Source: a virus (taxonomy: Duplodnaviria > Caudoviricetes). Taken from it: a stretch of DNA of 64,000 nucleotides. The position numbers were made by a program, and so were the translations under genes. Every line of letters starts with the position of its first letter. Position 1 is the first letter of the stretch. Under the pieces are notes generated by a model. The model was not told where the DNA came from. It worked only from the letters and a program-made list of their open reading frames with translations, and did not search any database. Positions 54,264 to 60,571 of the stretch are shown piece by piece. Where the stretch lies: positions 1-64,000 of the IMG/VR virus record IMGVR_UViG_3300037249_000541; one strand, 5' to 3'.

Positions 54264-54812
54264 TTATAAGTTTATTCCATCATCAAACAAAGTTTTTTCT
54301 GAGCCACCTCTTGCTTTTGCTGCGCTCTTGATTTCTGAATTAACAGCTTCTTCTGCATCTTTAAGGTCTTTTACCAATGTAGGTATAACCTTGATTGTCT
54401 GCGCAAGAGTATTAAGAGGATATACTGGTCTGCCTTTGTCATCAACTTCATTGAAGTTAATCTCTTCAAGAGCTTTCCTTAGTTTGTCAATAGCATTTTT
54501 TGTACTATCAAGAAGCATAGCAGATTCAGTTTTAAATGAACTATAAAAGTCTATTGCTGCTTTTGTAATATCATCAGGTTCCCATTTTTCATCAATGCCA
54601 AGACTCATCTTAATTTTACTTGACCTTTCTTCTACATCTCTAAATATCTGGAAATCACTTCTTGAATCGGCAAAGAAATATATATATGCAAATACACTTT
54701 TCAAAAACTCCTTATCCTTTTTAAAATTATTAGCAAGGTTTTCAAAGGGTTTTAGAAGAAGTGCTTCTGGGTCTATTTTTACCTCATAATTTTCGTATCT
54801 AAACAGTTTCAT
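54264..54812 (-). CDS. Conserved crAss-like protein (possible packaging accessory)
   Basis: YIYFFADSRSDF..W.PD..AIDFY..ARGG; position upstream of terL. Confidence 0.6.
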   Translation of the reverse strand: MKLFRYENYEVKIDPEALLLKPFENLANNFKKDKEFLKSVFAYIYFFADSRSDFQIFRDVEERSSKIKMSLGIDEKWEPDDITKAAIDFYSSFKTESAMLLDSTKNAIDKLRKALEEINFNEVDDKGRPVYPLNTLAQTIKVIPTLVKDLKDAEEAVNSEIKSAAKARGGSEKTLFDDGINL

Positions 54813-58205: not shown

Positions 58206-58278
58206 TGGAGAAGGTAGGTACTGCCCCTACTCCTATGGATTTTCAGTCCACCGCAATGACTTCATCTGCCACTTCTCC
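58206..58278 (-). tRNA. tRNA-Phe(GAA) with non-canonical T-loop
   Basis: GTGGA-CT GAA AA-TCCAT; T-arm GTAGG-GGCAGTA-CCTAC. Confidence 0.8.
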
Positions 58279-58624
58279 CATCAATAATTCCACTTTGAAG
58301 CAAATCAAAATATGTACCTCTTTCTAATCTTATACCATGAAACTCTCCATAATCTTCTGTATCTGGTCTTTTAATCTTTGTCTTTAGTATCAGATACTTC
58401 CCATAAGTTTCTTCATCTTTTAACTCAGCATCAAATTCTATTGTAGGATATTTGTTCCTAATGTGCATTGGTTGAGTTTTCAAATAATCATTATATGAAT
58501 CAAACATTGCGGCAACATCTCTTAATATAGCTATTGTAGAGTCAGCTCCTCTCTCATAAACAAAGCAAGGAACTTTTCTTTGCATTGTTATATCGTCTCC
58601 ACTATATCTACTTTCTTTGTCCAT
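58262..58624 (-). CDS. Hypothetical protein
   Basis: 120 aa; 3' end overlaps tRNA-Phe. Confidence 0.65.
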   Translation of the reverse strand: MDKESRYSGDDITMQRKVPCFVYERGADSTIAILRDVAAMFDSYNDYLKTQPMHIRNKYPTIEFDAELKDEETYGKYLILKTKIKRPDTEDYGEFHGIRLERGTYFDLLQSGIIDGRSGR

Positions 58625-59336: not shown

Positions 59337-59657
59337 TTATAGCTTTATCCCTTCCTCTTTAATTCTTTTGTAAAGTATTGATTTGTAGTCTCTCATTATT
59401 TGACGTTGCTTATAAAGATTTCCAAACTTTGATTTACCTACATATTCAAGTTCTTTTTTATTTACTGCTTCTATAAAAGCTTCAAGCGAAGATAATTTTG
59501 ATGACAGTTCGTTATATTCTCTTACAAGTCTGTCTTGCCAAGTAGTAGCAGGTGAAGATGGAATTGGTTTTACTTTTTTAATTAAATCGTCCAATATAGT
59601 TTCTAAGTTTGAAACTCTTTTATGTAACGCTTCAATACACATTAATTCTGTAAGCAT
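59337..59657 (-). CDS. crAss001_48-related helical protein
   Basis: WQDRLVREYNEL..L..L..FI..LYKQRQIMRDYKSIL.RI pattern. Confidence 0.6.
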   Translation of the reverse strand: MLTELMCIEALHKRVSNLETILDDLIKKVKPIPSSPATTWQDRLVREYNELSSKLSSLEAFIEAVNKKELEYVGKSKFGNLYKQRQIMRDYKSILYKRIKEEGIKL

Positions 59658-59838: not shown

Positions 59839-59922
59839 ATTGGGATGCCTTTTTTAACCAGAGGCATCAGAACTGACGATACATTTAAAATTTGCAATTA
59901 TGTATAAATAATCAAAAAAAAG

Positions 59923-59993
59923 TAGCGGATAGCGGACTCGAACCGCTGTGCCTTGGTTATGAGCCAAGTGAGTAACCTCTACTCTAATCCGCA
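59923..59993 (-). tRNA. tRNA-Met(CAT), initiator-like (1:72 mismatch)
   Basis: CTTGG-CT CAT AA-CCAAG; T1:T72. Confidence 0.85.
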
Positions 59994-59996
59994 GTG

Positions 59997-60085
59997 AGAG
60001 AAATAGAGGAATCGAACCTCTCGAAACTCTAAGAACACCAGCAAGCTGGTCTGTCCCTCATTGAGTAACGCCATCTTTATTTCTC
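59997..60085 (-). ncRNA. tRNA-like RNA with acceptor stem and T-arm but no D-arm or anticodon loop
   Basis: GAGAAAT/ATTTCTC acceptor; AGAGG-TTCGATT-CCTCT T-arm; centre is a long hairpin capped by ACCAG-CTTG-CTGGT. Confidence 0.6.
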
Positions 60086-60090
60086 ATTTG

Positions 60091-60161
60091 CGGAGAAGCA
60101 AGGAATCGAACCTCGATTAACTGGTTAACAGCCAGCCGCTCTGCCGTTGAGCTACATCTCC
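60091..60161 (-). tRNA. tRNA-Asn(GTT)
   Basis: GCTGG-CT GTT AA-CCAGT, G73. Confidence 0.9.
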
Positions 60162-60414: not shown

Positions 60415-60482
60415 TGTTAGATGCTTATAACGTGCTACCGTTACACTAAGGAGTCGAACCTATCTTTTACATTCATCTAACA
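60415..60482 (-). ncRNA. Permuted tRNA-elbow mimic (terminal stem, T-arm, D-arm; no acceptor stem, no anticodon)
   Basis: TGTTAGATG/CATCTAACA closing stem enclosing AGG-TTCGACT-CCT then TA-GTGT-AACGGTA-GCAC. Confidence 0.6.
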
Positions 60483-60485
60483 TTG

Positions 60486-60571
60486 TACTACTGACAAGAA
60501 TCGAACTTGCAAGAACATTTCTGTTCGGTGGATTTTAAGTCCACTGCGTTTACCAGTTTCGCCACAGTAGC
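60486..60571 (-). tRNA. tRNA-Leu(TAA)
   Basis: GTGGA-CT TAA AA-TCCAC, variable arm. Confidence 0.92.

Follow-up and report, generated by a model that had tools for sequence, protein, structure and literature searches.

Between the genes for tRNA-Asn and tRNA-Met in the tRNA array of a gut phage lie 89 nucleotides that carry the acceptor stem and T-arm of a tRNA but no anticodon, which raises the question of what kind of gene this is and what its product might do for the phage. The window, by which is meant the whole stretch of DNA that was analyzed, makes up the opening 64,000 nucleotides of a virus record that is complete, measures 106,381 bp and has direct terminal repeats; the element occupies positions 59997–60085 of the window on the minus strand.

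Source Phage and tRNA Array

The large terminase of this virus is 62% identical to that of the crAss-like phage cr116_1 and 54% identical to that of crAss001 (Steigviridae), and the sequencing runs that hold the stretch are mainly bovine gut metagenomes; the source is a rumen crAss-like, Steigviridae-like phage of Bacteroidota. In an IMG/VR relative with a terminase identity of 84%, a protein of 756 aa is matched over 3,368 nt (L002:1325–4692), and the gene there therefore appears to contain an interruption of about 1.1 kb (an intron, an intein or a homing element).

The element lies within a minus-strand tRNA array, and the window holds 12 tRNAs called by ARAGORN together with one more that is recovered by Rfam only (58206–58278, minus strand, 46.9 bits) and overlaps the start of an open reading frame at 58262–58624. 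Both neighbors of the element, tRNA-Asn(GUU) upstream (60091–60161, minus strand) and tRNA-Met(CAU) downstream (59923–59993, minus strand), are called by ARAGORN and Rfam alike, and no CCA is encoded in either of them or in the element. Within these bounds the tRNA-Met carries a U1-U72 mismatch atop its acceptor stem that is conserved in sibling phages. The spacer between tRNA-Met and tRNA-Ile contains a hairpin, GAUGCC-(13-nt loop)-GGCAUC (59849–59875, minus strand), which is kept in all close siblings while the remainder of the spacer is scrambled, and which could serve in termination or processing. The array also encodes a 106-aa protein, ORF106 (59337–59657, minus strand), that matches the Pfam family PF21825 (crAss001_48-related), labeled “Sequestin” in precomputed tables.

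Architecture of the Element

The short form of the element, as found in the window, is a tRNA-like RNA gene of 89 nt whose RNA 5′ end is at 60085 and whose 3′ end is at 59997, such that RNA position p equals 60086 minus the coordinate. Its 5′ acceptor strand GAGAAAU (RNA 1–7; 60079–60085) pairs 7/7 with positions 59998–60004 and is invariant in 5/5 full-length variants; the 3′ acceptor strand AUUUCUC is followed by the discriminator U73 (59997–60004 together), and the stem consists of seven Watson-Crick pairs beginning with G1-C72. The T-arm AGAGG-UUCGAUU-CCUCU (RNA 65–81; 60005–60021), whose 5-bp stem closes a loop that fits UUCRANY, is evident from both sequence and fold. The perfect 7-bp acceptor stem and canonical T-arm described in a sequence-only reading of this locus can thus be read directly from the minus strand. 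In place of the D-arm there is a single-stranded linker, AAAGAUGG (RNA 8–15; 60071–60078), which contains GG in every variant and otherwise varies by G11A and by one extra U.

The region of the anticodon arm is occupied by an interrupted rod, ACUC/GAGU, AGGGAC/GUUCUU and ACCAG-CUUG-CUGGU, which had been proposed from the sequence and on which the minimum free energy (MFE) fold and RNAalifold concur. The 5′ strand of the rod base (60063–60070) comprises C16 and G17, the unpaired U18 and U19, and A20, C21, U22 and C23, and it pairs with 60022–60029. It is followed by the internal loop AAUG (RNA 24–27; 60059–60062), which is replaced by GUUUG or GUUAG in the long forms described below and in which G27 is invariant. 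Next comes AGGGAC (RNA 28–33; 60053–60058), the 5′ half of the middle helix, paired with 60031–60036. In the MFE fold a bulge, A34 G35, leads into a variable tip hairpin, ACCAG-CUUG-CUGGU (RNA 36–49; bulge and hairpin together 60037–60052). The returning 3′ strands, GUUCUU, A56, GAGU, U61 U62 and C63 G64 (60022–60036), are found in both folds, as is a weak 2-bp helix at the rod base (C16-G64 and G17-C63) that is added here to the rod as first drawn. The T-arm adjoins the rod without any spacer. The RNAalifold consensus of five natural variants contains the same 24 pairs as the MFE fold.

Packing is tRNA-like, as had been pointed out: the element begins 5 nt after tRNA-Asn (spacer CAAAU, 60086–60090, minus strand; CAAAC in several variants) and ends 3 nt before tRNA-Met (spacer CAC, 59994–59996, minus strand). 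Compared with shuffled sequences, the stability of the short form is unremarkable when taken alone (z = −1.59), while the long form (z about 0) is no more stable than a shuffled sequence, and “rod” therefore describes a property of the short form. A scan for sigma-70 promoters, uninformative for a phage of Bacteroidota, reported as the sole “terminator” in the element the T-arm itself.

A K-turn consists of a C-G pair and a 3-nt bulge followed by tandem sheared G-A and A-G pairs. A similar pattern is present at the internal loop, where C23-G57 is followed by a variable bulge (AAU, GUUU or GUUA) and then by the invariant G27-A56 and A28-U55. It departs from the consensus in having U rather than G at position 2n and, in the long form, a bulge of 4 nt. 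It is possible that the internal loop forms a K-turn-like kink.

RNase P and the CCA-adding enzyme recognize the minihelix formed by an acceptor stem and T-arm, and for this reason the element is predicted to be a substrate of both. The sequence features that such a substrate would present are there, namely a modeled coaxial acceptor/T-arm minihelix, G1-C72 and a single-stranded 3′ end.

Relation to Decoding tRNAs and Other RNA Classes

The element was not called by ARAGORN, whether run without introns, with introns or with the tmRNA search. Searches of the short form with the Rfam tRNA, tRNA-Sec, tmRNA and Y-RNA models at E ≤ 10 returned a single trace, a 12-bit match of the T-arm to cyano_tmRNA; RF00005 and RF01852 gave zero matches at that threshold. 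The long form reaches 14 bits against tRNA-Sec, whose gathering score is 47, and on both forms the tmRNA models match the T-arm only, at 9–12 bits. Apart from the T-arm, the hairpin loops measure 4 nt in the short form, where the tip is a closed G(CUUG)C tetraloop, and 19 nt in the long form, and neither is an anticodon loop of 7 nt. All variants have G3-C70 as their third acceptor pair, such that the G3-U70 identity pair of alanine tRNA and tmRNA is missing, as are a tag reading frame and pseudoknots in an element of only 89–107 nt. The earlier view that the locus has no anticodon and is no standard tRNA is borne out by these searches, and, judged by its sequence, the element cannot decode.

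Several specific identities were considered and rejected. A standard or intron-bearing tRNA, a tRNA-Sec and a tmRNA are all rejected by ARAGORN and Rfam. A hand search for an alternative cloverleaf found only a 3-bp AAA/UUU D stem that is feasible in the long form alone and is not conserved. A hairpin inserted into an otherwise normal tRNA does not account for the sequence, as removal of the tip or of the entire rod leaves no cloverleaf, and a partial duplicate of tRNA-Asn is rejected given that only a generic 14-nt T-arm is shared.

Odd tRNAs are found elsewhere in the family. In crAss001 (NC_049977.1), a 170-nt gap between tRNA-Lys and tRNA-Phe holds an unannotated tRNA-Tyr(GUA)-like gene (L004:4141–4235) with a 7-bp acceptor stem and a canonical T-arm, on which ARAGORN makes no call; an 8-nt linker takes the place of its D-arm, its anticodon arm is normal and its variable arm is long. 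The same genome carries an annotated tRNA-Met of 87 nt (L004:5721–5807) that is unusual for a methionine tRNA in having a long variable arm and an initiator-like C1-A72 mismatch.

Chance, Assembly and Homolog Searches

Both strands of the 106-kb genome were scanned for a strict chassis, defined by a 7/7 acceptor stem, a 5/5 T stem and a T-loop consensus. The scan returned the called tRNAs, one G-U-rich match in a coding region (54628–54760, plus strand) and six uncalled chassis, the top-half element among them; all six lie inside the two tRNA arrays. The element is not a chance occurrence. The other five uncalled chassis are located outside the window on the minus strand, at 82417–82474, 84955–85067, 85783–85905, 86386–86495 and 86610–86725. 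Plain ARAGORN does not call them, and in four of the five (110–123 nt) there is a hairpin with (U/C)ACAA after it. The region from 82.4 to 89.1 kb contains about 15 copies of a GNYRCUY+ACAA motif and is adjacent to an RNA ligase (PF09414; 89685–90467, minus strand); a 639-aa protein near these copies has no sequence match in Pfam or PDB.

Words of 31 nt from the element are present in about 20 runs from 15 studies. The element is not an artifact of assembly: contigs from three runs that are independent of one another bridge the order Asn-element-Met, and the element recurs on five more contigs from other samples. No RNA run is listed among those that contain the stretch, and the single run labeled metatranscriptomic covers part of tRNA-Asn only.

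Homologs beyond this clade were not found in IMG/VR, GenBank phages, GTDB genomes or Rfam. An exact 25-mer and a degenerate 22-mer covering T-arm and acceptor are absent from IMG/VR, a 21-mer is absent from GTDB genomes, and an 18-mer of the tip gave only two chance matches in unrelated GC-rich or coding contexts. Searches of GenBank phages with blastn returned the flanking tRNAs only, and the model R1, run on crAss001, cr116_1 and T4, returned only ordinary tRNAs below 24 bits. The tip of the long form has no match of at least 12 nt in the genome. No description of such an element was found in the literature on crAss-like phages.

Presence, Absence and Two Forms

Sibling contigs were retrieved through the neighboring proteins ORF172 and ORF106, so that sampling was blind to the element. 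Among the 14 contigs that span the Asn-Met junction, the window included, eight lack the element (L005, L006, L007, L008, L011, L018, L019 and L028) and six carry it, two as the 89-nt short form (the window and L015) and four as a long form of 106–107 nt (L021, L024, L025 and L030). The short form also occurs in the read contigs X3, X7 and X17, which were found by the element's own words and hence are not a blind sample. In the long form, the 13-nt tip is swapped for about 30 unrelated nucleotides, which form a stem of 4 bp and a loop of 19 nt that includes GCGCGC. Where the element is absent, CAC is the sole spacer between tRNA-Asn and tRNA-Met and no replacement is visible at the junction. 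The indel measures exactly 94 nt, the 5-nt spacer plus the element, and its junction is ambiguous by 2 nt (CA). The element is thus an optional presence/absence cassette.

Both states also occur in a distant lineage whose ORF172 is 56% identical: L009 lacks the element, and L014, a GenBank metagenome contig, begins inside it and runs on into an L009-type tRNA-Met. A tree of the left flank resolves two clades with a 100/100 split, and the absent, short and long states are all found in each clade, which indicates old polymorphisms reshuffled by recombination and not a single recent insertion. The flanking tRNA-Asn and tRNA-Met are 99–100% identical among these phages and therefore offer ready homology arms, through which the cassette would move between co-circulating phages by homologous recombination.

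The tRNA array as a whole is a mosaic of optional cassettes, which in siblings include an HNH gene (L028) and a PD-(D/E)XK gene (L019). Between tRNA-Leu(UAA) and tRNA-Leu(UAG), the window and L030 alone have a second insertion (60415–60482, minus strand), in which a terminal stem encloses a T-arm-like AGG-UUCGACU-CCU and, after it, a D-arm-like GUG-UAACGGUAG-CAC. The window and L030 carry this permuted element together with the top-half element, and L015, L021 and L024 carry the top-half element only; the permuted element is rejected as an obligate partner since the two assort independently. In phages that are otherwise close, the adjacent tRNA-Leu(UAA) (60485–60571, minus strand) comes in two alleles that differ greatly, one in the window, L008, L021 and L030 and the other in L005, L006, L011, L015, L018, L019, L024 and L009, and from this split it is evident that whole tRNA genes are exchanged by recombination.

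Sequence Constraint

Variable alignment columns were counted among five carriers, with the chassis taken as the element without its tip. The chassis varies in 10/78 columns (12.8%) and the two adjacent spacers in 94/255 (36.9%), a difference that is significant by Fisher's test (p = 4e-5), while the tip varies in 25/29. Conservation of the chassis is comparable to that of tRNA-Leu(UAG) plus tRNA-Gln (19/157) and of ORF106 (38/321), but the chassis is far more variable than tRNA-Asn plus tRNA-Met (1/142; p = 2e-4). In the read contigs that bridge the locus, the Met-Ile spacer has accumulated ~17 substitutions and 8 indels, against 1–3 changes in the element.

The distribution of the changes follows the fold in most cases. 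The acceptor stem shows zero variation among variants. The pair G31:U52 is seen as G-U, G-C and A-U; A32>G produces a G-U pair and C23>U, in L030, a U-G pair, with pairing kept in each; and the distant lineage L014 shows a compensatory change in the T stem, from A65-U81 to G-C. Pairs are broken by two singletons, C80>A in the T stem (L015) and G64>A (L021), and all other changes are confined to linker, internal loop and tip. Set against column shuffles, covariation is not significant with so few sequences (193/500), and the covariation read from the helices is suggestive only. What is conserved is the acceptor stem, the linker, the two proximal helices and the T-arm. The rod proposed from the sequence alone is accordingly retained in part: its two proximal helices are kept with pairing-preserving changes, whereas the distal ACCAG-CUUG-CUGGU is replaced in the long form.

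Comparison With Known RNAs

The closest known RNA in kind, albeit without detectable homology, is the species 1 RNA of phage T4 (rnaC), a stable, expressed RNA of unknown role (PMC3014915, PMC9697503). Like the element, rnaC lies inside a phage tRNA cluster only a few nucleotides from its neighbors. When folded here it forms an acceptor-like terminal stem, a T-arm (CCGGG-UUCGAAU-CCCGG) and helices at the places of the D- and anticodon arms, such that a terminal stem, a canonical T-arm and the lack of an anticodon are common to both, a likeness of kind and not of family. A search of T4 positions 69500–73500, which encode rnaC and rnaD (species 1 and 2 RNA), with the model R1 at E ≤ 10 gave no match. 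Unlike the element, rnaC is 139 nt long, has two internal helices and an irregular terminal stem, belongs to another phage family with another host, and is not known as an optional cassette with swappable tips.

The tRNA-like domain of tmRNA (SsrA) shares with the element its order of parts, a 7-bp acceptor stem, a GG-containing substitute for the D-loop, a long helix, a T-arm and the 3′ acceptor strand. It differs in its G3-U70 pair, its pseudoknots, its tag ORF and its length of about 350 nt, where the element has G3-C70 and 89 nt. D-armless tRNAs of the mitochondrial tRNA-Ser(AGY) type resemble the element in combining an unpaired linker of ~8–12 nt with a normal acceptor and T-arm, but they keep a 7-nt anticodon loop and decode.

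Non-decoding tRNA mimics are also represented by YrlA-type Y RNAs and by the handle-bearing RNAs encoded at 82–89 kb of this same phage. The rod base of the element, GUUACUC, fits the 5′ strand GNYRCUY of the handle, but AAUG, GUUU or GUUA stands in place of the invariant ACAA and the closing GAGUUUC leaves two U-U mismatches. The GNYRCUY-like helix is, moreover, internal in the element, the ends of which form an acceptor stem rather than a handle. With ACAA missing and the closing strand mismatched twice, classification of the element as a variant of the genome's GNYRCUY-ACAA handle is unsupported.

Outside bacteria, the tRNA-like RNAs of gammaherpesvirus 68 and mascRNA are non-decoding RNAs whose tRNA-like folds are recognized by RNase P, RNase Z or the CCA-adding enzyme. 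The t-elements of plant mitochondria are likewise tRNA-like folds that are processed without decoding (PMC1920247). In contrast to the element these RNAs are eukaryotic or organellar, and they bear no sequence relation to it; mascRNA in addition keeps a cloverleaf, and the Rfam mascRNA model does not match the element.

Interpretation

With about even confidence, we read the locus from its sequence as an accessory gene of rumen crAss-like phages, the product of which would be a non-decoding small RNA that is processed like a tRNA and acts through the tRNA top half. The element would be transcribed as part of the minus-strand tRNA polycistron, and its top half, a 7-bp acceptor stem stacked on a T-arm and headed by G1-C72, would let RNase P cut at G1. 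The 3′ trailer would then be trimmed after U73 and CCA added, as for the neighboring tRNAs and in keeping with what these enzymes are known to recognize, to give a product of about 92 nt in which an 8-nt linker stands for the D-arm and an interrupted helix with a swappable tip for the anticodon arm. This product is probably uncharged, because the anticodon and the core elements used by most synthetases are missing. It would act in trans by offering its acceptor/T-arm surface to a tRNA-binding protein, either as a decoy or as an adaptor. The element has persisted at the same site in two lineages whose neighboring ORF172 is only 56% identical, and a genome that holds five more uncalled chassis and an RNA ligase belongs to a phage that evidently invests in tRNA-shaped RNAs.

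An alternative that is possible but doubtful is that the element is a neutral passenger, the relic of a tRNA (perhaps one of class II or without a D-arm, from which the anticodon arm was lost) lodged in a recombination-prone array, whose RNA serves no purpose and whose acceptor stem and T-arm are intact only since a misfolded insert 3–5 nt away would spoil the processing of tRNA-Asn and tRNA-Met. Such a passenger fits an element that is optional in the population, with a freely swapped tip, a poorly structured long form, broken pairs in two variants and a chassis less conserved than the flanking tRNAs, in an array where HNH and PD-(D/E)XK genes, the permuted element and whole tRNA-Leu alleles likewise come and go. 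It fits less well with the persistence of the element at one site across two diverged lineages, and in both its short and its long form, with the chassis intact in each. The proximal helices of the rod are irrelevant to the processing of the neighbors and yet are conserved with pairing-preserving changes, and since the element is evidently easy to delete cleanly, one without use would be expected to disappear. We regard as improbable a role in cis, in which a mimic comparable to a t-element would add RNase P and 3′-end sites and thereby space or stabilize the polycistronic transcript, the excised piece being discarded. The tRNA-like spacing and intact top half agree with this, and plant mitochondrial t-elements work in such a manner (PMC1920247), but siblings with only CAC between tRNA-Asn and tRNA-Met have no need of an extra site, and a minimal minihelix would suffice where a rod of 40–60 nt is retained with changes that preserve pairing.

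That the element is an unconventional decoding or chargeable tRNA, for instance one whose tip is removed as an intron, or a tmRNA-like rescue RNA, is very improbable and largely refuted. Its layout of acceptor, single-stranded linker, long helix and T-arm is that of the tmRNA tRNA-like domain, and the D-armless tRNA-Tyr-like gene of crAss001 shows that odd tRNAs exist in the family; against this, neither form offers a 7-nt anticodon loop, the short one being capped by CUUG, ARAGORN finds nothing even with introns and the tmRNA search, G3-C70 replaces G3-U70, no tag reading frame is present, and the tmRNA models of Rfam see only the T-arm.

As to what a non-decoding, tRNA-processed RNA acting through its top half might bind, the proposal of the sequence-only reading that it serves as a decoy for acceptor-end toxins, EF-Tu or RelA is purely conjectural. 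A more elaborate version, which we consider unlikely, is a modular RNA cassette for counter-defense or adaptation, in which a stable, uncharged, CCA-tailed top half would soak up or redirect a host protein that binds the acceptor/T-arm, such as a tRNA-targeting immune effector, while the kinked rod and its swappable tip (the CUUG cap, or the 19-nt loop with its GCGCGC palindrome) would represent specificity alleles held under balancing selection and exchanged by recombination via the flanking tRNA genes.

Implications

The structure described here is real, conserved and optional, and what is new is an optional, recombining, two-form top-half cassette of an RNA kind that was already known but unexplained. 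Genes for tRNAs in phages counter tRNA-cleaving defenses (PMC10264068, PMC11464382, PMC11555353), while the non-decoding tRNA look-alikes found in phage tRNA clusters have lacked a known function ever since the discovery of T4 RNAs C and D. The present element is unusually tractable in this regard, being only 89 nt long and occurring in two tip alleles among natural, isogenic-like phages with and without it, and the phage group that hosts it is the most abundant phage family of the gut. If it is a working RNA, its presence and absence across rumen viromes, compared with the defense repertoires of the hosts, could point to its target; if it is neutral, it shows how tRNA arrays gather processed junk.
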